NCBI GenBank assembly: GCA_000146465.1
Contig: CP001945.1
DNA: 64,000 nucleotides
Direction: 5' to 3' (one strand)
Below the pieces are notes generated by a model. It saw nothing but the letters and a program-made list of their open reading frames with translations, was not told the DNA's origin and did not search any database. Positions within the stretch are counted from its first letter, which is position 1. Each line of letters starts with the position of its first letter. This document shows positions 2,897-53,873 of the stretch, piece after piece. Both the position numbers and the translations under genes were made by a program.

Positions 2897-3787
2897 TTAT
2901 ATTCTTTTTAGTGCTTTTGTAAGGAAATGGTTCATCTCCCGTCGGCCTTTGCTAAGGAAAGCCTCCATTTCAACCTTCTTGCCTGTCTTCTTAAGAAGCA
3001 ACGGGTCATTGGTAAAACATTCGAACTCCATAAGTCTGTCAACCATCTTCAGGTCGTATTTATTCAGGCCTGCAAGGCCGTCCTGATGGATCCTCTTGTC
3101 TAGGATGTCTTCTGCACAGACGCCAATCCGCACAATAGTTTCAACTCTTGTCTCTGGAGCCTCTCTACTCCCATACTTATAGACACAAAAGATGTGAATA
3201 CCAAAGGGATCAAAGTCAAAGAGTCCTCCAATGGCTGTCTTGTGTTCTATCATCTTCAACAATAGCATAGTGTTCTTGCATGGATATCCTCTCCCACACA
3301 CAAGTAGCACACCTTCAAGATATCTTTCCCTTTCAATTCCAGATGCTATTCTTTGTAATATTGTATCTTTTTCAACAACCAAAACCCTCTCGTAACTGCA
3401 GAACACCTCAACTATGCCCTCCATGTCTGGAATAAGCTGTGGGTTGTTCCTACATGAGGACATCTCTATTATGTCTGGGCCCTTAACAAAAGCTAGCTTT
3501 CCGATAAAGGTTCCTTTGAGAGTATTTCTTATTCTAAGATCGCTTTTTGAAACTCGAAGCTCTGAGGCGATGGTAGATATCAACCTTTTGACAGCAGTCT
3601 GACTTTTGAATATATTCACAGCCATGTAAAAGATTTCTCTTTCATTTCTGGTGATTCCTAGTTCTTGCATCTCCATGATTATCTCATGGAGCCTTATCCT
3701 CATTACAAGAGTTCTCGACTTCAGCTCTGTCAGGAGCTTTAGTGCATTGTGCTTTAGCGATGTGGATATCTCAGAAGAAAAGGCCAT
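2897..3787 (-). CDS. SPO11: Spo11 / topoisomerase VI subunit A homolog (meiotic DSB-forming transesterase)
   Basis: Catalytic-tyrosine motif REIFY, Toprim motif VLVVEKDT, CGRGYP (GxGxP), DFDPFGIHI (DxD metal site); about 296 aa. Confidence 0.8.
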   Translation of the reverse strand: MAFSSEISTSLKHNALKLLTELKSRTLVMRIRLHEIIMEMQELGITRNEREIFYMAVNIFKSQTAVKRLISTIASELRVSKSDLRIRNTLKGTFIGKLAFVKGPDIIEMSSCRNNPQLIPDMEGIVEVFCSYERVLVVEKDTILQRIASGIERERYLEGVLLVCGRGYPCKNTMLLLKMIEHKTAIGGLFDFDPFGIHIFCVYKYGSREAPETRVETIVRIGVCAEDILDKRIHQDGLAGLNKYDLKMVDRLMEFECFTNDPLLLKKTGKKVEMEAFLSKGRREMNHFLTKALKRI

Positions 3788-3835: not shown

Positions 3836-4342
3836 ATGATATATACCGCAGAGATATACGAAAGAGTTAGGAAGCTCTTAGGAGATTTGTGCATGGTGCA
3901 GACCGGGGACAATCCAGTGGCATACAAGGTGTCAAAGTACAAATCAAAGAAGCCTGTGTATCTTGTTGAAGGAAATGGAGGAGAAATGTATCTGATGGGG
4001 GATCACGTCTTCGAGCTTGAGCGTAGTGGGTTTGATGTAGGGGTTTCAAAGGAGAAAGAGGTATTGGTTATGCTTTTCAAGTTCAGCACTAGAAGTCTAG
4101 AGGGAGGCAGAAGAGTTGCAAGAGAATCTCCAGAGGAAGGGCAATTTATAGAGGTGGATGTAGGTCCGGTGACATGTGATGGAAGAAGAATGGGAACCCT
4201 GATAGCATCAAGTATTCCACAGGGTTTATGTGCATTGTCTAGTGTGCTAAAAAGATTTATTCGGATTGATACCAACGGGTATTCAGAAGGAGGATTTGAA
4301 AAGTTGCTTGTGAGGGTTCTTAGTTCCAACAGGGTCCTATGA
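3836..4342 (+). CDS. Hypothetical protein
   Basis: 168-aa ORF with ATG start in a gene-sized gap; no family recognised. Confidence 0.3.
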   Translation: MIYTAEIYERVRKLLGDLCMVQTGDNPVAYKVSKYKSKKPVYLVEGNGGEMYLMGDHVFELERSGFDVGVSKEKEVLVMLFKFSTRSLEGGRRVARESPEEGQFIEVDVGPVTCDGRRMGTLIASSIPQGLCALSSVLKRFIRIDTNGYSEGGFEKLLVRVLSSNRVL

Positions 4343-4514: not shown

Positions 4515-5483
4515 ATGCTTCTACTTCTTACAATTGTTGGAATAGTGGTCTGCAGGGAAAATGCAGTGATTCTGATTCTCTGTAGGAACAGCGACAAGAA
4601 TGGCATAACAGAAACGATAAAGAATTTCGAAGAGGTGTTCAATAGAAACTTCGGATATCCTTATGTATTTCTGAACGATGAGGAGTTTACCGAGGACTTC
4701 AAGAAAGCTATAAAGGATGTTACATCTAATAGTGTTGAGTTTGGAAGACTCGAGCCCGAGGAGTGGGAGATTCCAAAGTGGATAGATATGGAGAAGGCAA
4801 AGGAGGAAATGAAGAAAATGGAAGACAGGAAAATCATCTATGGAGGGTCTCTATCATACAGGAAGATGTGCAGGTTCTTTTCTGGATTCTTCTACAGGAA
4901 CAAGCTTGTCCAGAAGTATGACTATTATTGGAGGATAGAGCCAGATGTAAAGTTCCTGTGCCAGATAGAGTATGATCCGTTCACATATCTTCGGGAGAAC
5001 AACAAACAGTATGGGTTTGTGATATCCTTGGTTGAGTTTATGGAGACGATTCCCAGTCTGTTTGGAGAGGTGATAAAGTTTGCAACACATAACCTGAACT
5101 TGATCAAAAAGGCCAATGGAAATAGATTCATACTAAACAAGGACGGGTCATACAACGGATGTCATTTTTGGTCCAACTTTGAAATAGCAAACTTTGGATT
5201 CTTTAGAAATGAAACATACCAGAAGTACTTTGATTGGTTAGACAAGGCTGGGGGGTTTTTCTACGAAAGATGGGGTGATGCGCCTGTGCACAGTATTGCA
5301 GCATCTCTCTTCCTGGATAAGGATCAGATCCACTTCTTCAGCGACATTGGGTATGAGCATCCTCCATTCCAGCATTGTCCAAGAGAGGCGTCCATGAGAT
5401 CGAAATGCAAGTGCAGTATTTCGAACTCGTTAGACTTTTCTCCAAATTCGTGTCTGGGCTTGTACATAAAGTCTCTTTTGTGA
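4515..5483 (+). CDS. Alpha-1,2-mannosyltransferase of the KRE2/KTR/MNT1 family (GT15), type II membrane protein
   Basis: N-terminal signal anchor. ILILCRNSD...[22 protein letters not shown] and [23 protein letters not shown]...YYWRIEPDV match Kre2p catalytic-domain motifs. Confidence 0.8.
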
Positions 5484-5563
5484 ATGAAGAATGCCTGGAA
5501 GTATATTCGATAATAATAAATTGGTACGACGGATATTTTGGTTTATTTTTGACCCGATACGAG

Positions 5564-8338
5564 ATGGATTCTGAAAAGGAAGCTTTGAAGGAAAGGAAGA
5601 AAATGGAGAAGGAAGAGAAGAAGAGGCAGAAGCTGGAGAAATTCCTGGCAAAGAAAACACAAGAAATGAATGTTTCCAAGCCAAGGAAGGAGTACAAGGG
5701 AGATGGCTATGACCCGCTAGGGATTGAAGGGAAGTGGTACGAGTTCTGGGAGAACAACGAGCTTTTCAAGCCTATAGAGGGAAAAGAGAAATATGTAATT
5801 CCGATTCCTCCGCCAAATGTCACAGGAAACCTTCATATAGGACATGCAATGATGGTTTCAATTCAGGATACTTTGTGTAGATACAAGAGGATGTGCGGGT
5901 ATGAGGTTTTGTATATTCCTGGGACAGACCATGCAGGAATAGCCACACAGAATGTTGTATTGAAGCAATTGGAAAGAGAAGGAGTTGTCTCTGACAGAGA
6001 AGGGTTTCTTAAGAAGGCCTGGGAGTGGAAGGATAAGCATGGATCAAGAATATATGAGCAATTTAAGAGATTAGGGACGAGTGTAGACTTCAGCAGGGAA
6101 AGATTTACCCTAGATCCAGGGATGAACGAAGCTGTTGTTGATGCGTTTGTAAAGCTCTATGAAAGAGGCCTTATATATCGAGAGCTGAAAATTGTGAACT
6201 GGTGTGCCAAGCTGTCGACAACCATAAGTGACTTGGAGGTTAATCACGAAGAGGTGATGGCCAGCACAGATCTACAAGTAGATGGAGGAAAGTATGAGTT
6301 TGGGGTAATTTATCATTTTAAGTATCCCATGACAATAGATAAGGAATTTTCAGGAGATTATCTTTCGCTACCGGCAATTGAAGTGGCAACAACAAGACCG
6401 GAAACGATTCTTGGAGACACGGCGATATGTGTGAATGGAAAGGACGAAAGATTTGGAGCCAGAGGAATAAAGGAGACTTTTGGGGATGTTCCTGAAGGAA
6501 GCAAGCTCTATTGTGTAAATCCGTTGACCAGTGAGGTGATTCCTGTTGTCTTTGACGACTATGCAGATATGAGCTTTGGAACTGGAGTGGTGAAAATAAC
6601 ACCTGCACATGATGCAAATGACTTCGATGTATCGAGGAGACATGGACTTCCTTGCAAGATTGTGTTTGATGAAGAAAACAGGGTAATCATTGAGGGAGAG
6701 TTCAAGGGGCTAAAGAGATTTGAGGCAAGAAAAGCTGTTATTTCAAAGCTTACAGACATTGGCTTGTTTGTTGGAAAGAAGGAGTATCCTCAGGTGATTC
6801 CAAGATGTTCCCGATCTAATGACATTATAGAGCCTATTGTCAAGAGTCAATGGTGGATGGACTGTAAGGAAATGGCAAATAAGGCTATTGAGGCAGTTAA
6901 AGAAGGAAGAATAAGAATACTACCTGAAGGGGCAGAAAGGCGATGGTATAAATGGCTTGAGAATATCAGGGACTGGTGTCTATCGAGGCAACTGTGGTGG
7001 GGGCATCGAATACCTGCATACAGAATGCCTTCTGGAAAATGGTATGTTGGAAGAAGCAAGGAAGAAGCATTTTTGAAGATGAAGAATGAGTGTCCTGAGG
7101 ATGGATGTAGTATTGATGAGTTTGAGCAGGACGAGGATGTTCTAGACACATGGTTTTCTTCGGGCCTATGGCCGTTTGCCATTCTAGGATGGCCCAAAGA
7201 GACAGAAGACCTTCAAAAGTACTATCCTAGCACCTTGCTTGAAACAGGCAGCGACATTCTCTTCTTCTGGGTGGCGAGAATGGTGATGCTTGGAATTGAA
7301 CTGACCGGAAAAGAGCCTTTCAGCCAAGTGTTTCTCCATGGGATAGTAAGAGATGCACATGGAAGGAAGATGAGCAAAAGCCTTGGGAATGTCATTGACC
7401 CGATTTTTGTGATTGATGGATGTCCTCTTTCAAAGCTGATTTCGACAATGAGAAGCGGGAATCTCGATGAGAGGGAGATGAAGAGGGCAGAAGAAGTCCT
7501 ACGAAAGGATTTCCCAAACGGAATACCAAGGTGCGGGGCAGATGCTCTTAGATTTACTTTACTTTCCTACACCTCTGGAATGAAGGATATCAACCTTGAT
7601 GTACTGAGGGTGGAAGGATATCGAAGGTTTTGCAACAAAATATGGAATGCTCATAGATTTGTGAAGGCAGCAGTAGATGAGGCCATTGAAGAAAGCCTTA
7701 GAGGGTCCACTTGTAAGAAGAAATACGAGAAGTATATTCTTCCGGCTGATAAGCTACAGATTCGTTCTGGAGAAGGACCCGTTGAATGGATTCTTAAAAA
7801 AAGGAACGAGTTAATAGAAATAAGCCAGAGAATGATTGATTCATTCAACTTCATGGGAGCCACACAAGCAATCCATCAGTTTTTTATTTACGATCTGTGT
7901 GATGTCTTCATAGAGGTTGTTAAGAAAAACAAGAGCGAAAGATACATAGGGGTACTATTAAGCGTGTTTATCGATTCGATGAAGATACTCCATCCATTTA
8001 TGCCATTTATCACAGAAGAGGTGTTTTCTGATTATTTCGATAGTTCTATTTCCACTTCACCATATCCTAGGACAGATGGGTCTAACCATGAAAACAAGTT
8101 TTCTGGGACACTTCAAATTATAAGGCATGTAAGGGCAAAGGCAGAGTCAAAGGGATGGCCTAGGGTTGCAGTAGGGATTGCCCCAGGAGAAGATGTTGAC
8201 CTTGCAGACCTGGAGTTTGTCCGTCTGCTTTGCAAAAAAATTATCGAATTTAAGGTAGTAGAACATTCAGAAAGCTCAGAAAGCCATCTGTATGAGAAGG
8301 TAGGGGATTCTGGAGTATTTGTGAGCCAAGCAGATTGA
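5564..8338 (+). CDS. Valyl-tRNA synthetase
   Basis: HIGH motif ([12 protein letters not shown]), KMSKS motif ([12 protein letters not shown]), class I editing/anticodon-binding architecture; about 925 aa. First in-frame ATG at 5564; the track start at 5375 overlaps the upstream mannosyltransferase. Confidence 0.9.
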
Positions 8339-19035: not shown

Positions 19036-20124
19036 ATGAGCATAAACTTAGGTGACATATTTACAATATCCGGGAGAAGACAATCACAAAAAGAGGATAG
19101 ATACACAAAGAGTACAATGGGAATACACACAAATGTTCTGGCCAGCATAAGGCTTATGACATCTTCCCGAAGCACTCGGATAGAAAACAGACATATTGAC
19201 ACGTCTCCACATAGGATACTGGATGCACCAGGTATGCTGGACGACTATTACCTCAACTTGCTCGACTGGAGCACCACAAATCTTCTGGTAATAGGGCTGG
19301 GAGAGTCTGTCTATGGATATAATGCCGTTGACAAAAGTGTAGTCGATATCCATTCTGGGGAGAATTATGTGTCATCGGTAAAAAGCAATGGAAACATCCT
19401 TTGCATTGGTACTTCAGACGGAGCGATGCGCCTTGTAGACACCTCGGTGAATAAGGAGATAAATACAATAAGAAATCACCAAGCCAGAGTCTCATCGTTG
19501 AGTTGGAATGGAAACATAATAAGTAGTGGAGACAAAGCGGGAAAGTTATGCAACTTCGACACAAGATGCGGAAAAATCTCTATGGTTGGAGCCCATTCCC
19601 AGGAAATATGTGGCCTGGCATGGAGTGCAGATATGAAATATCTTGCTAGCGGGGGAAATGATAATGTTATAAGAATATGGCAATTGGGAAACAACAATTC
19701 GCAAACGCTTTTAGGGCATAAATCTGCTGTTAAGGCTCTTGCGTGGTGTCCTTGGAGATCGGGGATATTGACTTCTGGAGGAGGAGCAAAGGATATGACC
19801 ATAAAGTTTTGGGATGTTGCCGAAAATAGGCTGGAAAGAAGCATAAGCACACAGTCTCAGGTGTGTACCCTCACATATCTCCCCAAGTATAAAGAAATCA
19901 TCTCCTCGCACGGATACAGTGAAAACGACATTCGAATATGGAAGACTTCCACAATGAATCTAATCTCTTCCTTCGGGAAGCACGGGTCGAGAGTTCTTCA
20001 CGTAGCTCTAAGTCCTGATGGATCGGAACTGGCCTCGGTATCTGCAGATGAAAACTTGAAGTTCTGGAAGATATTCAACACAGAAAAAGCATCTGTAAGA
20101 AGAGACAGCCTCTCGTTTAGGTAA
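19036..20124 (+). CDS. APC/C activator of the CDC20/CDH1 (Fizzy) family, WD40
   Basis: ILDAPGMLDDYYLNLLDWSTTNLLVIGLGESVYGYNA matches the Cdc20 region preceding seven WD repeats. Track start 18991 is TTG; first ATG is 19036, preceded by CCCCC. Confidence 0.75.
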   Translation: MSINLGDIFTISGRRQSQKEDRYTKSTMGIHTNVLASIRLMTSSRSTRIENRHIDTSPHRILDAPGMLDDYYLNLLDWSTTNLLVIGLGESVYGYNAVDKSVVDIHSGENYVSSVKSNGNILCIGTSDGAMRLVDTSVNKEINTIRNHQARVSSLSWNGNIISSGDKAGKLCNFDTRCGKISMVGAHSQEICGLAWSADMKYLASGGNDNVIRIWQLGNNNSQTLLGHKSAVKALAWCPWRSGILTSGGGAKDMTIKFWDVAENRLERSISTQSQVCTLTYLPKYKEIISSHGYSENDIRIWKTSTMNLISSFGKHGSRVLHVALSPDGSELASVSADENLKFWKIFNTEKASVRRDSLSFR

Positions 20125-27876: not shown

Positions 27877-28638
27877 ATGAATTTAATATCCGCTTCCGAT
27901 AGAGATATTATCGTCCGCATGGATGAGACTTTGATAGTGAGGGATGTCTTCAGCGGCACCACAAGGAAAATGACTGCGCCTCCTCTGATATCCTTTATGT
28001 CTGGAAAGTATTTAGTTGACAAAGAAAAAAATTTGCATGTTGTTGACGGACCTGTTCTTAGGAACGCTTCCAAGCTAAACAGAAACATCTTTTGTTTAGT
28101 AGAGCATGAGGGAACTGCATATGTTGCAGATAGGTTTGGAGACGTCTACAGAATTGAAAATGAAGGATGCAAATATGTGCTTGGAACTCTATCGTATTTG
28201 ACGGGAATGGCTATATACAACGGAAGGATTCTATTAAGTGATAAGTACGGAAGAATTCGCATCAGTGAAATGAATGGAAGAATATTGGACTATCGCTTTG
28301 GCTGCGACTCTATAGAATCTTTGGAATGTGTTAATGGACTCCTGATTTCAATAAGCAATAAGAATATGGTTCTATATGACGAAGAGTGTTTTCCCAGATG
28401 TACGTTTAAGCTTCCCGAAGGCATAAGAGTTATGAAGACCATTACTAAAGGAAAGAACGAGCTTGTAGTCATTTGCTTGAATTCCTATTTCTTGTTTAAG
28501 ATAGAGAAAAATAGCATTGGACTTGTTTCTCATGTGAAAGAATCCATAGTTGATGGGGCCTGCATCGGAGATCTCTTTTACAAGGTGCTTCCGGATCTCA
28601 CCGTTGTGGATTGCCAGGGCAGGATCTTCTATGAATAA
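27877..28638 (+). CDS. Hypothetical protein (possible beta-propeller)
   Basis: 253-aa ORF with ATG start; repeated beta-strand-like segments; no family assigned. Confidence 0.3.
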   Translation: MNLISASDRDIIVRMDETLIVRDVFSGTTRKMTAPPLISFMSGKYLVDKEKNLHVVDGPVLRNASKLNRNIFCLVEHEGTAYVADRFGDVYRIENEGCKYVLGTLSYLTGMAIYNGRILLSDKYGRIRISEMNGRILDYRFGCDSIESLECVNGLLISISNKNMVLYDEECFPRCTFKLPEGIRVMKTITKGKNELVVICLNSYFLFKIEKNSIGLVSHVKESIVDGACIGDLFYKVLPDLTVVDCQGRIFYE

Positions 28639-28704: not shown

Positions 28705-29424
28705 ATGGGTAATAGCAAAAGGCATAAGACTGAAAGCTCCCCTAACATCGTGGAAAGTACAGAGAGCGGCACCTATTCGGAATCAGTCTCCTTGGAATCT
28801 TCATCCGACGAAATTGTTTACGAGGTGGCAGATCTCTCGGTATCCAACTGGACGGATGTATCTATACTTATGGACCAGTCCAGGATGTTTCCCTCTTCGG
28901 AAGAGTTTCTTTCATTATTTGTCAATTCCAAGGTCTTAGTAAGCGGGGATCTTATTCTCTCCTTTTGTGGTTTTCTTGAGGTGCCCAAGGTCCTTGAAAT
29001 GATACACAAGAAGCTCAGGGAAGCTCTTAGCTCTTTGATTTCGACGGCAGAAAAGAACAAAATCAAAAGTAGCGAGGTTTATATATTCTATATGGAAAGG
29101 GCAGCCAATCTTCCTTTGGAAATGATTTTGAGCCTGTACAGGAGCCTTTCCTTAGGAAGATTCAAGTACATGATATTTGTCTCGAGAGTTAAGCCGTGTG
29201 GAAAAAGAGAGGTAAAGAATCTCATGGAAGACTTCAAGGAGTATAACCCAGTGGACTTGAGCCATATCCCTGTGCGAGGAGAAGAGATCTTGCTACTATC
29301 ATCCCACATAGCTAAGAAGCAGATTGGAATGAACAATAATATATTCCGACTGTTTTTGATGGACAGGAAGATGTTTGAATCGTTTATAAAGCTCTTCGAA
29401 AAAGAAATCTCCAAAAGCATATAG
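28705..29424 (+). CDS. Hypothetical protein
   Basis: Track start 28663 is TTG; first ATG is 28705, preceded by CCC; Ser-rich N-terminus; unassigned. Confidence 0.3.
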   Translation: MGNSKRHKTESSPNIVESTESGTYSESVSLESSSDEIVYEVADLSVSNWTDVSILMDQSRMFPSSEEFLSLFVNSKVLVSGDLILSFCGFLEVPKVLEMIHKKLREALSSLISTAEKNKIKSSEVYIFYMERAANLPLEMILSLYRSLSLGRFKYMIFVSRVKPCGKREVKNLMEDFKEYNPVDLSHIPVRGEEILLLSSHIAKKQIGMNNNIFRLFLMDRKMFESFIKLFEKEISKSI

Positions 29425-30316: not shown

Positions 30317-31090
30317 TTAATCTTTTTGTGGCTGCTCCTGCAGCTTCCTCATAATGTATTTTCTTGCTCTATCTTTAATTCTCAATTTTTTCTTTGTTTC
30401 AGATGGCCTGTCTCCATTTCTTTGGAGGTCTCCTTGGATCTTTTTGACTATTCTCTTCAAAGAAGATACACTTATGATCTCCCCAAGATTGAGCCTTCTG
30501 TGGGAGTCTGGTAAGTTCTCGTCTCTAATGAAGTATGCTATGCAAAGACAGTAGGAGCTCGTACACTTGTTGCTTTTGGATATTGAAAGAAACTCCTCTA
30601 GTAAATGATTACCTTTAAGACCTTGTGAGAGACAAAAATCTCTAACTCTGCTGAAGATTCTAGAGAGATATTCCGAAGACAGTTCTACATATTCAAACTC
30701 TCTCAAAAGAATTCTCTTGAGCCCCAGCCCCGTCCTTTCTGTAAGAGGCTTGAGATCGCTATATGATATTGGATACTGGTGTCTTCTAAGTACATTGTAA
30801 GTTATTGCCAGTATCTTATCGTTGGCTCCAATTCTGTGTTCAAAATCCTTTGTTCTCAAGAGGAGTTTAACCTCTTCGGAATAGCCTGAAACATTCAGAA
30901 TCCCAAGTAAAGACTCTACATTTCTGCTATATCTCTCTGCTTTGTCTACAACGAAATACTTCATTCTCCTTGGAATTACAGGCCTGTGAAAAGTATATGA
31001 TGCCATGTAGTTGTCGCAATCTGATTCCAAGCACAATCCACAGGACGTACAAGCACCATTGTCAATCCATGGGTGGCTGCAACCCTCCAT
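30317..31090 (-). CDS. TFIIB-family-like protein (N-terminal zinc ribbon plus cyclin-like fold; TFIIB/Brf-like, reduced)
   Basis: N-terminal CSHPWIDNGACTSCGLC zinc-ribbon-like Cys cluster followed by a helical repeat; basic C-terminal tail; the short length leaves assignment uncertain. Confidence 0.3.
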   Translation of the reverse strand: MEGCSHPWIDNGACTSCGLCLESDCDNYMASYTFHRPVIPRRMKYFVVDKAERYSRNVESLLGILNVSGYSEEVKLLLRTKDFEHRIGANDKILAITYNVLRRHQYPISYSDLKPLTERTGLGLKRILLREFEYVELSSEYLSRIFSRVRDFCLSQGLKGNHLLEEFLSISKSNKCTSSYCLCIAYFIRDENLPDSHRRLNLGEIISVSSLKRIVKKIQGDLQRNGDRPSETKKKLRIKDRARKYIMRKLQEQPQKD

Positions 31091-32226: not shown

Positions 32227-33243
32227 ATGGCGAGAACCAGGGGAATTCTAGGTCTTGTAAATCCTCAGGATCTTCTTTTCAAAGCTGTATTCATAGAAAA
32301 AAGACTTCCGAAGCATCATCTAAAAGAGATATCGATATCTGCAATTGTGCTTAAGGTGATGTCTCAGGATATTTCTATTAGGGAAGGAGGTCTTGTTGTG
32401 ATTGGTCTTAGCAGGATTTTGGTAAGGAAACTAAAGTATCTGCAGGATGAGTGTAGTGATGTTGTACATAAAATCTGGAGAAAGAAAGGCGAAAAAGGAA
32501 AGGGCCTCAGGTCGGTATCCTCGAAGGGAATAACCTTGGGACTTGACTTAGAAAGGTTATATATCGACGATCAGATGATAAGTCCAGAAGAGTTTGTCAT
32601 TCTTCCTGAGGAGGAGAACATAGATGGAATACAAGAAATAGAAGACCTAAGCTTTGGGGGATTTAACGACATTTCATATGTTGAAGAAGGAAGGTTTGGA
32701 ACCGAGGATAGCACAAGAGCTTCTACAGCCACGGAGATTACTCAAATTCCCTTAGAGGAGCGAAGAGAGAAAAGGAGGAAAATAATTGAAGACTTGGAAC
32801 TGGAGTTTGACGCCCGAGAATTTCGAGAAAACCTTAGGAATACAGGGGATATAGTGTTTAGGGAGAAAAGTCTCGATATAAGAGATGAGCTTGTTTCCAA
32901 ACTCTCAATTGCACCTGAGATACTATCGAAGATCTGTAGGAGAGAGATGTACCAAAGAGAAAGCATAGAAGGTGTCCGTGATACAGTAATAATGGAATCA
33001 TATGGAGACATCAGTTTTGGGGACAATATAAATGAGTCGCAAGTATCCTCCGAGGTTGTAGAGGAAGACTGTCTTGATATTGAGAAGTTGCCTGAAAGAT
33101 TTGTCTTCAATGAGATGGCTGATGGGCATAGCAGATATGAAAGAAGTAGGATGTTTCTGTCTCTTCTAAATCTGCTTGGAAGCGGGATGGCGATGGCAAA
33201 CCAAAGAGCGGCATATTCTAATATAGAATGCAATCTTTTGTGA
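32227..33243 (+). CDS. Rad21/Rec8-family kleisin (cohesin subunit)
   Basis: N-terminal domain LLFKAVFIEKRLPKHHLKEI...GGLVVIGLSRILVRKLKYLQDECSDVVHKIW is collinear with Rad21 N-terminus (AKIWLAAHWEKKLTKAQI...[30 protein letters not shown]); C-terminal winged-helix-like tail RSRMFLSLLNLLGSG. Confidence 0.65.
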   Translation: MARTRGILGLVNPQDLLFKAVFIEKRLPKHHLKEISISAIVLKVMSQDISIREGGLVVIGLSRILVRKLKYLQDECSDVVHKIWRKKGEKGKGLRSVSSKGITLGLDLERLYIDDQMISPEEFVILPEEENIDGIQEIEDLSFGGFNDISYVEEGRFGTEDSTRASTATEITQIPLEERREKRRKIIEDLELEFDAREFRENLRNTGDIVFREKSLDIRDELVSKLSIAPEILSKICRREMYQRESIEGVRDTVIMESYGDISFGDNINESQVSSEVVEEDCLDIEKLPERFVFNEMADGHSRYERSRMFLSLLNLLGSGMAMANQRAAYSNIECNLL

Positions 33244-34303: not shown

Positions 34304-37300
34304 CTAGACTTTATTATTAAAGAAGTCTACATTGTATATAAGATCGAAAGAGTTTGTCCCGCATTTCACGGGATTTCCCACAGTTATGGAGGCAGAGGGA
34401 TTAGACAATTGATCTTCAAGGTGGAATGCTGCAGCTGTTTTGAAGTTGGAGTAGCAGCTTTCGAAACTCATTTTCTGGATAAGAGAGTCGCCAATTCCAA
34501 GTCCATGCCTACTGAAGGGAGAGTAGTCGCCTTTTCTTGTCATATAGTCAGCTACAAGAAGAAGATGCCGAGCATCAATTGAAATTCCATAGACATCGAA
34601 AACCTTCACTACTTCGTTGATTATAGCATGTCTTGCAGCCTCAATCCCAAGCGTTAGATACACATTGTATATATCATTAGACTCGGAATTGTAGATATCT
34701 AAGAGATCTAGTAGATCCTCATAGACACCGGGAGCCACCTCTATCCTTCCTGTCAAAGAGGAGATGGAAGGGCTTTCTACAAAGAGAGTATTTCCGGAGA
34801 TCGAGGCCTTTTTTATGCCTTTGGTTTCTCTCACCACAACTGTAGGAAGGATAGATTCGATTATTGAGGATATCACTTCGTTAAATCCAGAAGGATACAG
34901 CATCTCAAATGAAAGTATGTTTTTTGACTTCCTTGTAAAGTTTATGAGATTCTCCTCTTCAGTACTGCTTGAGTTATCGGTATGGTCAATTTCGTCAATA
35001 GTCTCGGGATGAGTAGTATCATCACTGTCCTTTTCAGTGTTTTCATTCTCGCTGGTATCTACACATATATAGTCACTCTTTGAATTACTTTCCTCATCAC
35101 TGTCACTCTCATCCTCTTCCTCGTTTTCTTTGTTTTCATCTAGTTCCTTTGAACTATCTTTATTTCCCTCTTCCATTCCTAACTTATATTTTACTTTAGA
35201 TAGCATTTTCAGTTTACTTCCAAGTATCTTCAGGAACTTTCGGTCCAAAGCCTCGCTTGCAAGGTCCACAAAGTTGTCCAGGTCAAACACCATTCTAATT
35301 TTCTTCTGAAAGACCCCGTCAATCATCACAATTTCCTCAGAGACCCTAAATTTCCTGACACAATCTTTCAGTGTTATCTTCTTTAAGCATGTACCAATAT
35401 CAAAATTCAACTTTTTCCTGATAGGAATAGTAACCAAAGGCGTCTTTATGGACTTGGATGCTACCAATAGAATTTCTCTGAGCCTAGGAACTCCAAGAGT
35501 CACGTTCTTTTCTCCTACACCAGCTAGATGAAAGGTGTTGAGAGTCATCTGAGTGGAGGGTTCTCCTATCGACTGTGCAGCTATAATCCCGACAGATTCT
35601 CCTGGGTCGGCTAGAGAGCATACATACCTACTTTCCAGAAATCTCTTAAGCTCTTCGTCAAAAAACTCTATCTCTTTTTTGAACCGAGGAGACAAGAAAT
35701 CTTCGTATCTGTTGCTAAGCTTGAAGGAAGACAAAGATAGCTCCTTAAAGAGAAAGGCATTTCTTCGGAAAAACTCAGGATCGTCCAAATAGCTTGACTT
35801 CGTGCAGTCAAGGCCGTCCTCGCCATAAACAAACTGAACTATCTTTTTCCCAATCCGTGCCGATCTGTCATACTCAACCTTTATCCCCTCCATGTGCTTA
35901 ACTAGGCATCTTTGTAGATATCCGGAATTGGCAGTTTTGATTGCAGTATCAATAAGCCCTTCTCTCCCTGCCATGCAATGGAAAAAATATTGTGATGGAT
36001 TGATACCATCCAAAAAGCCTTGATATATGTACCCTCCAGAGGATGGATCAGGATCCAGCGGCTTGAAGCAAGGCAATGTCTTTCCACTAGCCATCACCGG
36101 GACTCTCCGTCCCTCCAGCTCTTGCTGTCCTAGAGCACCTGAAATCTGGCTCAGATTAACAATCGAACCCTTGGATCCTATCGAAACAATCAATTCCATA
36201 CCGTTGTCCGGAAAACCTTTCTTCAATCCTGAAGGAACGGATGCATTAACTATCTCTGAGGTTATCTTGTTCATTTCTCTTCTCATTATAGAGTCCAAGT
36301 AAGCTTTTTTGTCGTCGCATAAGTAAAAGTCTGGATTCGCTTCCATGTACTCCTTCTGAAGCTCCCTTACCTTCTTGTCTTTGGTTTCCATCACTTTTTT
36401 TCTTTTCGCATTCGCATCATTGCTAAGAATAAGATCATCTGCTCCTATTGTAAACCCATACATTTGAAGATATTTGTTGCAAACTCTTCCTATATATGTT
36501 AGTAGGTCATTCGAGGCTGCAAACCCCCTAATCTCTCCGCAGGCATGGGCTAAGGACTTGAAAGTTGGCCCTATTGAGTTCTTGTCCAAAATCCCTGTAA
36601 TTATATTCCCTTCACTAATTCTTAGAACGCTTTCTTCCGAATGCTCCCTCCATGCGTCTTTTGGAACCTTGGTTTCAATTTCAATATTTAAACCCAGCCC
36701 GAGGTTCTTTATTATTGCTGAGAGCACTTGCTTTCCAGAATAGAGTCTTACAGGCTTGAGAATACAGGGCTTATCTATGGTAATTCGTCTTCCATCCAAT
36801 CCAGAATTCACTAGAGTAAAGTAATCTTCTTCGGAAAAGAACGAGTTTTTCATCGTCAAGATTGCTGCAGCAACAATGTGATCTTGGGTAAGGCCTCTTA
36901 TTGGTTTCCCGTCGGTGGGGACTAGATAGTTGAAGTCATTCATGACAATATGTCTAGCCTCGGCCTCAGCAACATAACTTTGTGGAAAATGAATGTTCAT
37001 CTCATCTCCATCAAAGTCTGCGTTGTAAGATTTACAGTTGGCATAATGCATTCTTAATGTCCTTTCTCCTTTCAGCACCTTGCACTTATGAGCCATAATG
37101 CTTGGTCTATGTAAAGTCGGCTGTCTGTTCACAAGTACCACATCTCCATCCACCAAATGTCTCCAAACAACCTTCTTTCCATCCAGGAGCTGGTTTGCCA
37201 AGGCAAATCTCTTTTCGTCAGGCATGTGGCTTAAACTAAGCATTACATCTCCATCCTGTAGGTATAAACTTCCCGGATAGGTAGATCCATTCACAATAGC

Positions 37301-38485
37301 CTTTTTCAATTTGCTTACATTGAAGCTAGTTACTCTCTCTGGAAATGTCAGAACTTCCGCAAACACAAAAGGAACTCCTATCTCCCGTGTCTCTAGATTA
37401 GGGTCTGGGGATATGACAGTCCTCGCCGCGAAGTTAACTCTCTTTCCCATTATGTTTTTGCGGAACAGCCCTTCCTTCTTTTCAAGAATCTGCTTGTGTC
37501 CCGGTGGCGTTATCAAACCGATATTCCGTTTCCTTAGGTTTGAATTATCAAACGACGAAAGAACAGCACCTTGCAGCTCTGGCCAGTATGAAAGGTCTTT
37601 TTTCACCAATTCATTGATGGTGAGAATGTCGTTAAAGGAAAAAGTCTGAGGATTCGGGGCCTTCTTCTCATTTAAAAAAGACACCGGACGGAATCTATTG
37701 GGTGTGACAGGTATACTTGTCAAAAAGAACATATTCGGGTCTTTTGTAGAGAAGATGGAGCCAATCAAGTCGGCTTCATTGGAAAACAAATCTTCCACAA
37801 GCTCTCTAATAAAATCCGGGAAAAGCAGCTCCGAATCCTTTTCATTCTCACTATTTTCATCATCCCTTTGGAGGGACTTTAATATCTTTATGTTTGTTCC
37901 TTTATAGATCTTTGGATTGGCATGTCCACATCTCACACATTTCTTTTTTGAATTTATACTAGAAAAGAAGTGGCGCACCATCTCCTGGTACTTATCTGTT
38001 GGAGGCCCAGGTCTGTTTTTCCTTGAGGATTCCACTCTCTTACTAACAACACTGTACAGCTCCTCTTCCTCCGAAGTAGCATACAGCTCATCCAAGCCGT
38101 CTATTTCTTCTCCATTTCTAAGAAGAGAGAACTTACAGAACATAATAAGCCGATCATAATTTGTTATTCTAAAGTGCCTGCACTGGAAGCAACAACACCT
38201 AACTAATGAGAGCAGCGAGTCGAAGAATATCGGATTGAAAACAGGCTTAAATAGCTTTATGCGTCCAAAATGTCCTGGGCAGTTTAGAAGCGACAAATTG
38301 CAGGTTTTACAGTTGGACGAGAAGTCTAATGGCCCCATTCTCAAGTCGTACAGGCCTCCACGCACAGGATGCCCGAACTTGTCGAAAGTAGATGGCTCCG
38401 TAACATCCATGCAACTAGCCTGTTCTATTTCCTTTTCAGAGTATACTCCAAACGATATCTTCTTTGGATGAAATTTCATAACCAT
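34304..38485 (-). CDS. DNA-directed RNA polymerase I largest subunit (RPA1/A190)
   Basis: Universal NADFDGDEMNIHFPQS catalytic motif with the Pol I-specific HFPQ variant; zinc-binding N-terminus; large acidic insertion (EEDESDSDEESNS...) typical of A190; no CTD heptads. The track N-terminus (38486-38635) is the reverse complement of tRNA-iMet; real start taken at 38485. Confidence 0.8.
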   Translation of the reverse strand: MVMKFHPKKISFGVYSEKEIEQASCMDVTEPSTFDKFGHPVRGGLYDLRMGPLDFSSNCKTCNLSLLNCPGHFGRIKLFKPVFNPIFFDSLLSLVRCCCFQCRHFRITNYDRLIMFCKFSLLRNGEEIDGLDELYATSEEEELYSVVSKRVESSRKNRPGPPTDKYQEMVRHFFSSINSKKKCVRCGHANPKIYKGTNIKILKSLQRDDENSENEKDSELLFPDFIRELVEDLFSNEADLIGSIFSTKDPNMFFLTSIPVTPNRFRPVSFLNEKKAPNPQTFSFNDILTINELVKKDLSYWPELQGAVLSSFDNSNLRKRNIGLITPPGHKQILEKKEGLFRKNIMGKRVNFAARTVISPDPNLETREIGVPFVFAEVLTFPERVTSFNVSKLKKAIVNGSTYPGSLYLQDGDVMLSLSHMPDEKRFALANQLLDGKKVVWRHLVDGDVVLVNRQPTLHRPSIMAHKCKVLKGERTLRMHYANCKSYNADFDGDEMNIHFPQSYVAEAEARHIVMNDFNYLVPTDGKPIRGLTQDHIVAAAILTMKNSFFSEEDYFTLVNSGLDGRRITIDKPCILKPVRLYSGKQVLSAIIKNLGLGLNIEIETKVPKDAWREHSEESVLRISEGNIITGILDKNSIGPTFKSLAHACGEIRGFAASNDLLTYIGRVCNKYLQMYGFTIGADDLILSNDANAKRKKVMETKDKKVRELQKEYMEANPDFYLCDDKKAYLDSIMRREMNKITSEIVNASVPSGLKKGFPDNGMELIVSIGSKGSIVNLSQISGALGQQELEGRRVPVMASGKTLPCFKPLDPDPSSGGYIYQGFLDGINPSQYFFHCMAGREGLIDTAIKTANSGYLQRCLVKHMEGIKVEYDRSARIGKKIVQFVYGEDGLDCTKSSYLDDPEFFRRNAFLFKELSLSSFKLSNRYEDFLSPRFKKEIEFFDEELKRFLESRYVCSLADPGESVGIIAAQSIGEPSTQMTLNTFHLAGVGEKNVTLGVPRLREILLVASKSIKTPLVTIPIRKKLNFDIGTCLKKITLKDCVRKFRVSEEIVMIDGVFQKKIRMVFDLDNFVDLASEALDRKFLKILGSKLKMLSKVKYKLGMEEGNKDSSKELDENKENEEEDESDSDEESNSKSDYICVDTSENENTEKDSDDTTHPETIDEIDHTDNSSSTEEENLINFTRKSKNILSFEMLYPSGFNEVISSIIESILPTVVVRETKGIKKASISGNTLFVESPSISSLTGRIEVAPGVYEDLLDLLDIYNSESNDIYNVYLTLGIEAARHAIINEVVKVFDVYGISIDARHLLLVADYMTRKGDYSPFSRHGLGIGDSLIQKMSFESCYSNFKTAAAFHLEDQLSNPSASITVGNPVKCGTNSFDLIYNVDFFNNKV

Positions 38486-38566
38486 TTTGAAGAAGGGTCG
38501 TTTTGAGAATGAAATTGAAAATGCAGATAATCCTAGGGAGATGCCGATCTTGATAGGCCATCTTAA

Positions 38567-38639
38567 AGCATGGTGGCGCAATGGAAGCGCGCTGGGCTCA
38601 TAACCCAGAGGTTGTGTGGTTCGAATCCCACCCATGCTA
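38567..38639 (+). tRNA. tRNA-Met (initiator type), anticodon CAT
   Basis: AGCATGGTGGCGCAATGGAAGCGCGCTGGGCTCATAACCCAGAGGTTGTGTGGTTCGAATCCCACCCATGCTA. A1:U72 acceptor end, GGG/CCC anticodon stem, CAT anticodon and GTTCGAATC T-loop closely match eukaryotic initiator tRNA. Confidence 0.85.
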
Positions 38640-38709: not shown

Positions 38710-40512
38710 TCAAACATAGACTGTTGTGACAAACTGCTCCTCAGACTCTTTGCACACCTTTCTTTTCTTCCCTTCCACCCCCTTTCTGCAGTTTGGCTTC
38801 TTCTTATATGAGTAAACTGTATTATATACAGTCTTATGGCCTCCCTTGTTTTTTGTTTCTCTCTCCACAGTCTTTACTACTGTTTTTGTCACCGTCTTCA
38901 CCAAGTCACTTGCCATTTCTAAGTGAGAGCTTTGCTTGGGAGTTTTTGTGCATTTTGTTTCTTCCAAATCCTCAATTAACACCTTTCTAACTAATGGAAG
39001 GAGCTCTGCTATTATGTCTTGCCTACCTGTGTTCATAAACCCTTGAGTATCCGATAATGAAGCAGCCACAGAGGAAAAGACCTCTTTCTTTTCCGAAGTC
39101 TCAGGAACACTGACGGTGAGACACTTTTCCGTACATATTAGAGAAATCGAGGCTGGCAAAGAGATACTGGCAGAAACCCCTTCTCCCTTTTGGGATCCAG
39201 GATTTTGGCTTGGGTCACTTCTAGAAGCTGTCTGTGTTGTAACTTCCTCTGTCTTTGTAACCGTAAGGACGGAAACAGTTGGTTTAGTTATTGTTCTATA
39301 TACCACACTAGGAAATTCAGAAGTACTTGGATCACTACTAGAGGAATCTATTGTTTTCGTACTCTTCTGAGTCTCTTCATTCCTTTTCGATGTCTCACCA
39401 GAAATAATTGGAGCTCTCATGGATATACTTTCCTCCGGCACCTTCGGAATTTCCTGGCCATGCGGAGCCTTTGTAGATATGATTGTGGAATACTGCGTCT
39501 GTACAACTGTCTCTGTCTTAACGCTACTCTCTGTCTTGGTTGAGGTTGAAATCTCCTTGACAGTTGTTAGCTTGTAATTGATAATGGGAACTTCACTCTT
39601 GACTGTTGTTGTCACTTCTCTGTACAACGTAATGGGTTTTTCGACACTGACAGTCTTATAAAACACTCGGGTGACTGTCACAACAGTGGGCTCGCCCTTT
39701 TCCTTTTCATCATCTTCAAAACCTTTTTCTGCTTCGGAGACTTCATCTATTTTGTCATCGTCCAGTGAAGAGTCCTTGAGCTTGGAGCGCTTTACTGAAG
39801 AAGAAATAAGGGTAGAGCCCTCCCCTTCCTTTACAGGAGTCTTACGGATATTGTCGTCGTATTTTCTTTGCTTCTCAGGTCTCTCAGAGCGTGTCAATTG
39901 AGAAACCTTTTCTGAAATCACTGGAATCTCCACCGTCTTGAAAATAGTTTTCGTATCCTCTTTTTTAGTTTCACAGGTTTTACCATCCTCGGTCACGTGG
40001 GTATCTTTCTTCTGCTCGTCCCTTGAGATTGTTGCCGGGTGCTCTGAGACCGTCTCCGTCTTTGTTTCAATTACTGTGATGCTTTTATAAGATACTAATG
40101 GTACCTCTTCGGTTTTGGTTGCCGGTGCAGAATTACTCTTATTTGTATCTTTGTGATGGATCACATGAATGAAGGGAATCGGAGGTTCGGAATTCCTTCT
40201 ATATGAATCCATTGGGCCGTTAGAAGGTCCTTCTCTCATCCATTCAAGCTCTTTGCACTCGTCTCTACAATCTTCCTTCCTACAGTTCATGCATTTATTC
40301 ACATCTTTGTAGACAACAGCCATGCACCTTCCTTTGTTACAACTTGAATCGCGCACTATTGGCAAATTAAAGCTCTGAAGATATTCATCGTATTCCCGTT
40401 TGGGAAGATACACGGAGTTCAAGCAGTCGTTCAAACTTATTCCATATCTCTGGCATCTACTCGTTAGCTCGTCCTGGATGGCATAGCATCCCATAATCAT
40501 CAGAATTATCAT
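38710..40512 (-). CDS. Secreted Cys-rich / Thr-Ser-Val-Lys-rich protein; candidate spore-wall or polar-tube-associated protein
   Basis: N-terminal signal peptide (MIILMIMGCYA|IQ); Cys-rich N-terminal module with about 10 Cys; about 350 aa of T/S/V/E/K-rich low-complexity beta-like repeats (TVTKT, TVVKTV); basic Cys-containing C-terminus (KKKPNCRKGVEGKKRKVCK) resembling heparin-binding motifs. Confidence 0.45.
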   Translation of the reverse strand: MIILMIMGCYAIQDELTSRCQRYGISLNDCLNSVYLPKREYDEYLQSFNLPIVRDSSCNKGRCMAVVYKDVNKCMNCRKEDCRDECKELEWMREGPSNGPMDSYRRNSEPPIPFIHVIHHKDTNKSNSAPATKTEEVPLVSYKSITVIETKTETVSEHPATISRDEQKKDTHVTEDGKTCETKKEDTKTIFKTVEIPVISEKVSQLTRSERPEKQRKYDDNIRKTPVKEGEGSTLISSSVKRSKLKDSSLDDDKIDEVSEAEKGFEDDEKEKGEPTVVTVTRVFYKTVSVEKPITLYREVTTTVKSEVPIINYKLTTVKEISTSTKTESSVKTETVVQTQYSTIISTKAPHGQEIPKVPEESISMRAPIISGETSKRNEETQKSTKTIDSSSSDPSTSEFPSVVYRTITKPTVSVLTVTKTEEVTTQTASRSDPSQNPGSQKGEGVSASISLPASISLICTEKCLTVSVPETSEKKEVFSSVAASLSDTQGFMNTGRQDIIAELLPLVRKVLIEDLEETKCTKTPKQSSHLEMASDLVKTVTKTVVKTVERETKNKGGHKTVYNTVYSYKKKPNCRKGVEGKKRKVCKESEEQFVTTVYV

Positions 40513-40623: not shown

Positions 40624-40695
40624 GGCTCGGTGGTCTAAGGGTATGATCTCCGCTTTGGGTGCGGAGGGCTCCAGGTTCAAATCCTGGCCGAGCCC
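40624..40695 (+). tRNA. tRNA-Pro, anticodon TGG
   Basis: GGCTCGGTGGTCTAAGGGTATGATCTCCGCTTTGGGTGCGGAGGGCTCCAGGTTCAAATCCTGGCCGAGCCC is nearly identical in architecture to eukaryotic tRNA-Pro, with anticodon loop TTTGGGT. Confidence 0.85.
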
Positions 40696-40784: not shown

Positions 40785-41822
40785 ATGGAAGAATACACAC
40801 TCTGCTCCTCAAGTACCGAGCAAGGCGAAATACCAGTCATTCACATCAAAAGATTCAAGGAGGCCCCTCCATTGTTTCCAAGAAACAAGTCTCAGCTGCA
40901 GTATATGTATCTCCCAAACAAGTCCCTATTTATCGGGCCAAACACCATTCCAAGGTCTAGTGATTATCAAGTAAATGTCCTTACAACCAAGCTTAAAAAG
41001 AGACTCAAGCATGATCTTTCTCATCCGTTTCTGTGTCTTTCGATGAATTCCGATAGATCATTCTTTGAAGGGAGGTTTACCTTTGTCTCCACGGTCCAAA
41101 TCCCAGAAAGTGTTGAAGAGATGTGTTTTGTCAAAGGTAAGGAGAGGATAGTTCATGTCAAAGAAAAAACAGATGTAAATACAGACGTGAGAAAAGAAAT
41201 AAAATTCGACCACATAAAGGACAAACAGAACGATTCATACAAAGATGTCTGCCAGGACTTTTTGCTTGGAAAGTTACTTGAAGGCATTGGGGACAAAAAG
41301 ATAAATATCATCATTAGAGACTCCACCATCAATAATATTCTGTCAAAAGAAGCATATATACACTTTTATGTAAAGAAGAAGGATGAAAAACTGTACATTG
41401 TTTTTGACGAAGTTTACACTAGAGAAGTCAAGTATTACGACTATCTCTCGAAGTATGGGGAGGAGGTTGTTCGATCTCTGAAATCTTCGGAAACCCGTAT
41501 GTATTCCAGTTCGGAAGCAGTGGTTGTTGTGTATTCATCAACTCTCTTCTACGATTCCTCTGGGCTTCATAGACTGTTTAGTGGAATTGACGTCGAAAAG
41601 TCCATCGACATGGTGGTAAATATTGAAGATGTAAGAGCTGTAAAAAGCTCAGGATCCTTAGGAGACGAGCTGAAGGTGCTTTTTGGAATTAAGTTTGAGG
41701 AGGGAGAATATGTCCTTAATGATAAGAAGATATATGTGTTGGAGCCAAGCGGGGAAAAGTTTAAATTCAATGGAGTTGTGTTTACTGATTTTATGGACTC
41801 CCAGGAGCCTATAAGCGATTAA
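40785..41822 (+). CDS. Hypothetical protein
   Basis: Track ORF starts with GTG inside tRNA-Pro; first ATG is 40785, preceded by CCCC; 345 aa; unassigned. Confidence 0.35.
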   Translation: MEEYTLCSSSTEQGEIPVIHIKRFKEAPPLFPRNKSQLQYMYLPNKSLFIGPNTIPRSSDYQVNVLTTKLKKRLKHDLSHPFLCLSMNSDRSFFEGRFTFVSTVQIPESVEEMCFVKGKERIVHVKEKTDVNTDVRKEIKFDHIKDKQNDSYKDVCQDFLLGKLLEGIGDKKINIIIRDSTINNILSKEAYIHFYVKKKDEKLYIVFDEVYTREVKYYDYLSKYGEEVVRSLKSSETRMYSSSEAVVVVYSSTLFYDSSGLHRLFSGIDVEKSIDMVVNIEDVRAVKSSGSLGDELKVLFGIKFEEGEYVLNDKKIYVLEPSGEKFKFNGVVFTDFMDSQEPISD

Positions 41823-53126: not shown

Positions 53127-53873
53127 ATGGAAGTTAAAAACGGCATAGATTACGTCTTTCGAGGATCTAGAGATGAGGTGAAACAAACCTTTAAGTTCCA
53201 AGGATCAGCTATAGTTCTGACACCGTACAGAAGTAAATGCTCTGGATTAGCATATTTAGAAGACAGTGAAGAAATTGTGATGACACCAAAGATGGCTTTG
53301 GAAAGAAGTTTCGATAAGATGAAAGGCGGACATGTGATTGTAGAGGATTGTGAGTTGATGGATGGGTTTGGGTATATGGAAGATTTAATATGTCTGAAGA
53401 GGAAGGGGATTTCATTTATCCTTCTGAATGCCCAGAAAGTTCCCAAGTTTGCAGAGAATCCTGTCTTTATATCTAGCAATAGATACTTTATAAAAGCAAC
53501 AAAGGATGAAAGATATGCTGCAATTTTTGCATTATGTAAGATTTATAAGAATGTGTGCATTATATGTAAGGATGTAGAGAGGATGAAGATGTTTTCTGAG
53601 ATTTTCAAGCTAAATCTGGATGTTGTTGGGCACGGAGATGCTGTAGACGGTAGAAGCGTTGTTATTGTGATGGATGGGTTGGTAAATATTAAGTGTGAGA
53701 AGCTATTCTATGTTGGGGATAAATGTAAAGGAATGAAAACGATGGTTTTAGACACGAGCAAAATTGGGAAATTTCTGTATAGGGTCAGGGATGTGTGTAA
53801 TATGCTTTCCCCGGGAGTTGTAAGGGGGAAAAAGGAATTGAATATCAATAGGTTTCGCGGGATTGAGAAATAG
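53127..53873 (+). CDS. Hypothetical protein (possible degenerate helicase-C-like fold)
   Basis: 248 aa; the segment ICKDVERMKMFSEIFKLNLDVVGHGDAVDGRSVVIVMDGLVNIKCEKLFYVGD loosely resembles helicase C-terminal motifs IV-VI but lacks catalytic Arg residues. Confidence 0.25.
   Translation: MEVKNGIDYVFRGSRDEVKQTFKFQGSAIVLTPYRSKCSGLAYLEDSEEIVMTPKMALERSFDKMKGGHVIVEDCELMDGFGYMEDLICLKRKGISFILLNAQKVPKFAENPVFISSNRYFIKATKDERYAAIFALCKIYKNVCIICKDVERMKMFSEIFKLNLDVVGHGDAVDGRSVVIVMDGLVNIKCEKLFYVGDKCKGMKTMVLDTSKIGKFLYRVRDVCNMLSPGVVRGKKELNINRFRGIEK

Follow-up and report, generated by a model that had tools for sequence, protein, structure and literature searches.

Background

The gene treated here encodes a Spo11 protein of the microsporidian Encephalitozoon intestinalis and lies at positions 2897-3787, on the minus strand, of a 64,000-nucleotide stretch of contig CP001945.1 (assembly GCA_000146465.1; the whole stretch is called the window in the following). 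Its closest described relatives are the archaeal topoisomerase VI A subunit (Top6A; M. jannaschii 1D3Y, S. shibatae 2ZBK, M. mazei 2Q2E), the Spo11 of S. cerevisiae, known within its core complex (PDB 8URQ/8URU), mammalian SPO11 (its alpha isoform above all) and the Spo11 proteins of other Encephalitozoon species and of Ordospora. The archaeal enzyme needs an ATP-dependent B subunit and reseals the break that it makes. In the yeast core complex, the N-terminal extension of Spo11 and a pair of helices (L60, F103, L105, L112) touch Rec102 and Rec104. In mammalian SPO11 the region encoded by exon 2 is needed for the binding of TOPOVIBL, and the SPO11alpha isoform reportedly cannot bind TOPOVIBL and by itself shows low break-forming activity in vivo.

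The gene itself is annotated, and Encephalitozoon Spo11 has long been discussed in print as a member of the meiotic toolkit. Spo11, Hop1, Hop2, Mnd1 and Rec8 were reported in Encephalitozoon and Dmc1, Msh4 and Msh5 were found to be missing, an inventory that was read as reflecting either unseen sex or recent asexuality (Malik 2008); the same point was made by Gill and Fast (2007), who cite Ramesh et al. (2005) for it. For E. intestinalis the published inventory (Desjardins 2015) equates SPO11 with Eint_041090 (Supplementary Data 5), HOP1 with Eint_020840, HOP2 with Eint_010870 and MND1 with Eint_101570, lists RAD51, MSH2 and MSH6 as well, and marks DMC1, MSH4, MSH5, REC8 and RAD21 as not found. 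The present analysis concerns the family membership of the protein, its intact catalytic residues, its vertical inheritance within the Microsporidia, the synteny of the locus and the purifying selection acting on it.

Identity and catalytic apparatus

The coding sequence is a single open reading frame (ORF) that starts with ATG, specifies 296 amino acids and does not require an intron. Its translation is a 100% match to the NCBI entry 'DNA topoisomerase VI subunit A [Encephalitozoon intestinalis ATCC 50506]'; the identical protein sequence was found on five contigs by protein search, and the ORFs adjoining the gene are identical to E. intestinalis proteins. Eint_041090 is a chromosome-IV tag, as are the tags of the window genes, and that of the kleisin gene discussed below (Eint_041360) sets the window on chromosome IV. 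The coding share of the window is about 88% and its spacers are very short; together with the 100% match this bears out the preliminary description, made from the sequence alone, in which the genome had been called microsporidian-type.

Two Pfam domains were recovered above their curated cut-offs, both of which the preliminary description had proposed as a check (all coordinates of this section are on the minus strand): the winged-helix domain (5Y-CAP, TP6A_N; residues 29-86, positions 3530-3703), with 44.2 bits against a cut-off of 26 (E=1.7e-11), and the Toprim domain (TOP6A-Spo11_Toprim; residues 135-283, positions 2939-3385), with 69.4 bits against a cut-off of 24.1 (E=4.9e-19). Before the winged-helix domain there is nothing except a short N-terminal helix, spanning residues 2-20 in the structural model (positions 3731-3787). 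The four signatures that had been described as intact are all present, far beyond chance: i) REIFY (residues 50-54, positions 3626-3640), which holds the catalytic Tyr54 (codon 3626-3628) and whose Arg50 and Tyr54 align to R131 and Y135 of yeast Spo11; ii) VLVVEKDT (residues 135-142, positions 3362-3385), with the metal-binding Glu139 (codon 3371-3373) aligned to yeast E233; iii) GRGYP (residues 165-169, positions 3281-3295), the family motif IV, located by motif search and family alignment; and iv) DFDPFG (residues 191-196, positions 3200-3217), whose metal-binding Asp191 (codon 3215-3217) and Asp193 (codon 3209-3211) align in a profile alignment to the DxD pair of yeast Spo11 and archaeal Top6A.

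These residues were then inspected in a set of 166 family members, which combined the earlier matches with the 150 top-ranking representatives obtained when 1.84 billion proteins were searched exhaustively. The catalytic columns are near-invariant: Arg50 is an arginine in 163 and Tyr54 a tyrosine in 164 of the sequences, Glu139 is a glutamate in 165, and Asp191 and Asp193 are aspartates in 159 and 157, respectively, the exceptions being nearly all gaps in fragment sequences. The disruption of the catalytic tyrosine or of the Toprim residues, which had been named beforehand as a finding that would speak against the assignment, is thus not seen on careful alignment. In the AlphaFold2 model (overall pLDDT 69) the core of winged-helix and Toprim domains is confident (pLDDT 77-92 for the winged-helix stretch, residues 29-86), and residues 222-296 are poorly modelled. 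All Foldseek matches to the PDB with E ≤ 1e-5 were chains of Top6A or Spo11, M. jannaschii Top6A being the first; the TM-scores were low (0.34-0.39) because the model is of moderate quality overall and poor for residues 222-296.

By analogy with the chemistry of the family, two Spo11 protomers would dimerise on duplex DNA, and, positioned with Arg50, Tyr54 from the winged-helix domain would attack a phosphodiester in each hybrid active site, in which Glu139, Asp191 and Asp193 of the Toprim domain of the partner protomer would hold Mg2+. The predicted outcome is a double-strand break with Spo11 covalently attached to the 5' ends. Going by the published inventories for the genus, Mre11-Rad50 would process such a break and Rad51, together with Hop2-Mnd1, would repair it, with neither Dmc1 nor the Msh4/5 crossover pathway.

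Relation to Spo11 and to topoisomerase VI

The public annotation names the protein as a topoisomerase VI subunit, and archaeal Top6A has its fold and active-site chemistry in common with E. intestinalis Spo11, as well as a C-terminal K-x-E-hydrophobic-E-A motif (KVEMEA in E. intestinalis, KLEIEA in S. shibatae). A search of the solved structures with the single sequence ranked S. shibatae Top6A (5.3e-09) marginally before yeast Spo11 (2.9e-07). The annotated name, this ranking and the first rank of M. jannaschii Top6A in the Foldseek search would be in line with a true mitotic topoisomerase VI A subunit working with an ATPase B subunit. The database name is, however, a generic family label, and the ranking was reversed when a profile made from an alignment of eleven microsporidian homologues was run against the solved structures: yeast Spo11 came out on top with 84 bits, above every Top6A chain (75, 51 and 37 bits for the archaeal ones). 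The representative of the mammalian SPO11 cluster scored 151 bits, and the NCBIfam equivalog models for prokaryotic Top6A gave 46-55 bits against cut-offs of 424-531, which were thus missed by some 400 bits. All named relatives are SPO11 proteins (Mucor, Astathelohania, mammals and four Nematocida species), and the closest named homologues recovered outside the Microsporidia are SPO11 and none of them TopoVI-A.

A neighbour-joining tree (165 sequences, 280 columns, 100 bootstrap replicates) placed E. intestinalis Spo11 within a clade of 48 short proteins (92/100 replicates) that has Nematocida as its sister group. The gene tree therefore follows the species tree, and this topology indicates that Spo11 was inherited vertically within the Microsporidia. 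The archaeal Top6A chains, together with at most 12 associated taxa, were split from the E. intestinalis, mammalian and yeast Spo11 proteins in 100 of 100 replicates; the taxa nearest to the archaeal chains (P0017, P0132, P0141, P0156, P0165) are unnamed, save for one automatic 'SPO11' label. Of the phylogenetic check that the preliminary description had proposed, the separation from archaeal Top6A and the company of named SPO11 relatives come from our own tree and searches, and the contrast with eukaryotic Top6A is taken from the literature: Malik (2008) placed the Encephalitozoon Spo11 (that of E. cuniculi) in a tree that has the eukaryotic Top6A paralogue as its root, and Brinkmeier (2022) did not find in fungi the TopoVI accessory proteins BIN4 and RHL1, whose occurrence strictly follows that of TopoVI A and B. 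Among the 36 ORFs of the 64-kb window that were scanned with Pfam, none carried a GHKL or transducer domain, so that no ATPase of the B-subunit type was recovered there. Taking the domains, residues and relationships together, we consider it very probable that positions 2897-3787 hold a single-exon, functional Spo11 orthologue of E. intestinalis.

Synteny and selection within Encephalitozoon

The orthologues are 68% (E. romaleae), 67% (E. hellem), 63% (E. cuniculi, ECU04_1110) and 47% (Ordospora) identical to the E. intestinalis protein, which places the identity within Encephalitozoon at 63-68%. They measure 299-303 amino acids and their catalytic residues are identical, so that the differences amount to sequence divergence only, with the E. 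intestinalis protein being shorter by 3-7 residues. The gene order actin-like, EF-1alpha, Spo11, 167-aa ORF, KTR mannosyltransferase, class I tRNA synthetase, TMEM33 is the same in E. cuniculi, E. hellem and E. romaleae.

Ratios of non-synonymous to synonymous substitution rates (dN/dS) were estimated by the Nei-Gojobori method for the four Encephalitozoon species, with synonymous sites that are saturated (dS at least 1.2). Spo11, whose ORF is intact in all four species, gave 0.08-0.125, and the pair with the least saturation, E. hellem and E. romaleae, had a dN of 0.151 and a dS of 1.21. The neighbouring genes gave 0.04-0.10 (EF-1alpha), 0.02-0.04 (KTR mannosyltransferase), 0.04-0.06 (TMEM33) and 0.12-0.25 (the 167/168-aa neighbour). 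The Spo11 ratios therefore point to clear purifying selection. As read from these sequence comparisons, such selection argues against a decaying relic, and dN/dS does not reveal when and in what manner the protein is used.

Some observations on the neighbourhood are added here. Between E. intestinalis and its congeners the KTR mannosyltransferase (4515-5483, plus strand) keeps 87-90% identity, which makes for a sharp contrast in rate with the adjacent Spo11. The ORF at 3836-4342 (plus strand, 168 aa), annotated as 'putative UDP-Gal beta GlcNAc beta 1,4 galactosyltransferase-like protein' and without a Pfam match, is the fastest-evolving gene of the neighbourhood (62-69% identity). From Spo11 it is 0.7 kb to the KTR gene, which is of the KTR/KRE2 type, and 15 kb to a CDC20/Fizzy gene (19036-20124, plus strand); in an expression table of Vavraia culicis, SPO11 (VCUG_01483) is listed directly between a KRE2/MNT1-family mannosyltransferase and CDC20 (VCUG_01484), which suggests an old microsynteny across distant microsporidia. 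Finally, three Spo11 orthologues (P0002, P0006 and P0007, with 69%, 60% and 51% identity) were recovered solely from public sequencing runs as assembled in Logan, suggesting that unsequenced or undescribed relatives of Encephalitozoon are present in public read data.

A short N-terminus

A feature in which the E. intestinalis protein departs from the yeast and mammalian enzymes is its N-terminus. The catalytic tyrosine is preceded by 53 residues, as compared to 49-57 in most members of the 48-protein clade, 72-80 in Nematocida, 134 in yeast and 137 in the mammalian SPO11 cluster, and the some 80 further N-terminal residues of the yeast and mammalian proteins have no counterpart. A mis-called start was considered as the source of this shortness and rejected, because the ATG and the divergently transcribed neighbour lie only 48 bp apart and because the same architecture, with about 50-55 residues before the tyrosine, recurs in most of the clade.

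In comparison with yeast Spo11, with which it has the winged-helix and Toprim architecture and the DxD pair in common, the protein is about 100 residues shorter (identity about 23% over the aligned part) and is devoid of the extension through which the yeast protein touches Rec102 and Rec104. In the alignment, residue 22 of the E. intestinalis protein stands opposite yeast residue 102, and the second helix of the Rec102/Rec104-contacting pair is therefore retained (helix 25-43 of the model). The N-terminal helix 2-20 may or may not be a stand-in for the first helix of the yeast pair, and it may still form a reduced interface for a B subunit. To mammalian SPO11 the protein is 28% identical over 264 residues (BLASTP, E=8e-27), with all catalytic motifs in common. 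An alignment to the primate beta and alpha isoforms leaves residues 1 to about 81, a span that takes in the 38-aa segment absent from the alpha isoform, without an equivalent in the microsporidian proteins; SPO11alpha likewise is without the N-terminal segment encoded by exon 2, and E. intestinalis Spo11 is without the exon-1 region too.

The short N-terminus could result from the general compaction of proteins in microsporidian genomes, or it could reflect a B-subunit interface that is reduced or absent. A further step, that microsporidian Spo11 is a minimal enzyme of about 290 residues resembling the alpha isoform, which would break DNA as a dimer on its own or together with some unrecognised partner, we regard as doubtful. 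With respect to another yeast partner, Ski8, an inspection of the C-terminus by eye gave no obvious QRxxPhi Ski8-binding motif. A small WD40 ORF in the window (57582-58466) was taken up as a Ski8 candidate and dropped, as it gave generic WD-repeat matches only.

Use of the enzyme

In the preliminary description the gene had been seen as part of a retained meiotic or recombination toolkit, which agrees with Malik (2008), Gill and Fast (2007) and Desjardins (2015). The explanation that accounts best for the whole, and that we hold to be probable, is that Eint_041090 is the Spo11 orthologue of E. intestinalis and that the protein would cut DNA in a cryptic meiosis or in a meiosis-like recombination step. 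For a specifically meiotic role our confidence is lower, although we lean towards it. The microsporidian expression data that were recovered come from two species: in Edhazardia aedis, SPO11 is upregulated in the meiotic stage; Vavraia culicis carries SPO11 and does not express it in the sampled stages.

Several points weigh against a meiotic Spo11. Dmc1, Msh4 and Msh5 are absent from Encephalitozoon in both inventories (Malik 2008, Desjardins 2015), and Haag (2019) cites Pelin (2016) for the loss of key meiosis genes in E. cuniculi. Our literature search gave no observed meiosis in Encephalitozoon and no expression data for Encephalitozoon Spo11. The non-synonymous rate of Spo11 is 2-5 times that of its housekeeping neighbours, the protein is without the N-terminal stretch by which the yeast and mammalian enzymes contact their B-like subunit, and the neighbour-joining tree contained no sequence identified as a eukaryotic TopoVI-A (SPO11-3), that contrast being literature-based. 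As to the published record, the locus tags ECU04_1110 and Eint_041090 gave no literature matches in main texts, and Spo11, Rec8 and Rad21 all go unmentioned in the main text of a 2025 PLoS Biology paper that deals with microsporidian sex. No other meiosis genes were recovered among the Pfam-scanned ORFs of the window.

The alternative that survives best keeps the enzyme functional and moves it outside conventional meiosis, where it would make programmed breaks for parasexual or mitotic recombination (gene conversion, or loss of heterozygosity between homologues), comparable to the nuclear exchange of Giardia, an organism that recombines without meiosis by means of homologues of Spo11, Hop1 and Dmc1 (Malik 2008). 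Such use would fit the missing Dmc1 and Msh4/5, the description of Encephalitozoon as strictly monokaryotic with a sexual stage that has never been observed, and the diploid state of E. intestinalis with its exceptionally high homozygosity (PMC10845963), and it would also be compatible with the purifying selection, which speaks for some function being kept. However, the meiosis-specific Hop1, Hop2 and Mnd1 are kept along with Spo11, the expression of SPO11 in E. aedis tracks the meiotic stage, and selfing with true meiosis explains the high homozygosity equally well as gene conversion does. We consider this alternative unlikely, if the most serious of the competing ones.

That the ORF is an unused remnant of a sexual ancestor which has not yet decayed is improbable. 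The silent SPO11 of V. culicis, the repeated loss of sex reported for the Microsporidia (Haag 2019) and the place of Spo11 among the faster-evolving genes of its neighbourhood would be in line with it, but the ORF is intact and syntenic in the four Encephalitozoon species with a dN/dS around 0.1 despite the saturated synonymous sites, the catalytic residues are all kept across the 48-member clade (the sole exception being a serine at the glutamate position in P0053), and unused genes would be expected to be lost from the extremely streamlined genomes of this genus; a pseudogene or relic was rejected on the intact ORFs and these ratios. The least probable alternative, a true topoisomerase VI A subunit, was rejected on the profile scores, the NCBIfam cut-offs and the tree (in which there was no verified eukaryotic SPO11-3), while the absence of the TopoVI accessory proteins from fungi points the same way.

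The kleisin gene of the window

The preliminary description had joined to Spo11 a Rad21/Rec8 kleisin at 32227-33243 (plus strand) as a sign of the same toolkit. The ORF exists (Eint_041360, 338 aa, publicly an 'uncharacterized protein') and was assigned to this family with Pfam: the N-terminal Smc3-binding domain (Rad21_Rec8_N) reached 30 bits against a cut-off of 23.1, and the C-terminal Smc1-binding winged helix (Rad21_Rec8) stayed with 22.1 bits just under its cut-off of 22.7; an unnamed orthologue, P0193, has a precomputed PF04824 match. The orthologues are 41-71% identical, and the named ones are all from Encephalitozoon and called 'hypothetical' or 'Rad21/Rec8-like'. What did not hold to the same degree is the support for meiosis. 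The matches in the PDB are RAD21 chains only, with human RAD21 (4.8e-06) and fission-yeast RAD21 as the best, and the inventories conflict: both REC8 and RAD21 are present in Encephalitozoon according to Malik (2008), whose supplement text gives no Encephalitozoon accessions, and both are absent from E. intestinalis and E. cuniculi according to Desjardins (2015). The divergence of Eint_041360 may lie behind this disagreement. At 338 residues, the protein is roughly half as long as human RAD21 (631 aa).

Eint_041360 is thus a kleisin of the Rad21/Rec8 family that is not assignable to Rec8 over the mitotic Rad21. Since mitosis requires a cohesin kleisin, Eint_041360 would count as independent evidence for meiosis only if it proved to be Rec8.

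Other genes of the window and of related genomes

A few further annotations of the window deserve correction or comment. A tRNA-Met gene (CAT; 38567-38639, plus strand) overlaps the first 69 bases of the ORF for the largest RNA polymerase subunit on the opposite strand (34304-38635, minus strand, 1443 aa), and the real start of the latter gene is therefore probably at a downstream ATG. A similar situation is found for the class I tRNA synthetase (5405-8338, plus strand), whose 977-aa ORF shares 79 bases with the KTR gene at the 3' end of the latter; as its orthologues measure 921-929 aa, its true start is probably at a later ATG as well. A tRNA-Pro gene (TGG) is located at 40624-40695.

No Pfam match at E ≤ 1e-4 was obtained for seven ORFs of 239-600 aa: 38710-40512, 30317-31090 and 59514-60365 on the minus strand, and 40785-41822, 27877-28638, 28705-29424 and 53127-53873 on the plus strand. 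These probably encode lineage-specific or highly divergent microsporidian proteins. In the related genome of E. romaleae, the topoisomerase III-like gene (L003, 10018-11886) encodes 622 aa without a Toprim match, as opposed to 722-723 aa with Toprim in E. cuniculi and E. hellem, which could be due to a truncated gene call or to a real N-terminal loss.

Implications

Spo11 is a standard marker of the 'meiosis toolkit', and the Encephalitozoon Spo11 has been used since 2005-2008 to argue for present or recent sex in human pathogens that appear asexual. Finding the E. intestinalis gene again adds nothing to that argument. The additions made here are modest: the purifying selection and the strict synteny across the genus, the vertical inheritance of the gene, and the truncated N-terminus that is common to the clade. 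The last of these could be of interest to work on the minimal needs of Spo11 catalysis, and if the microsporidian enzyme did act as a stand-alone dimer, it would provide a compact natural model of partner-independent break formation.

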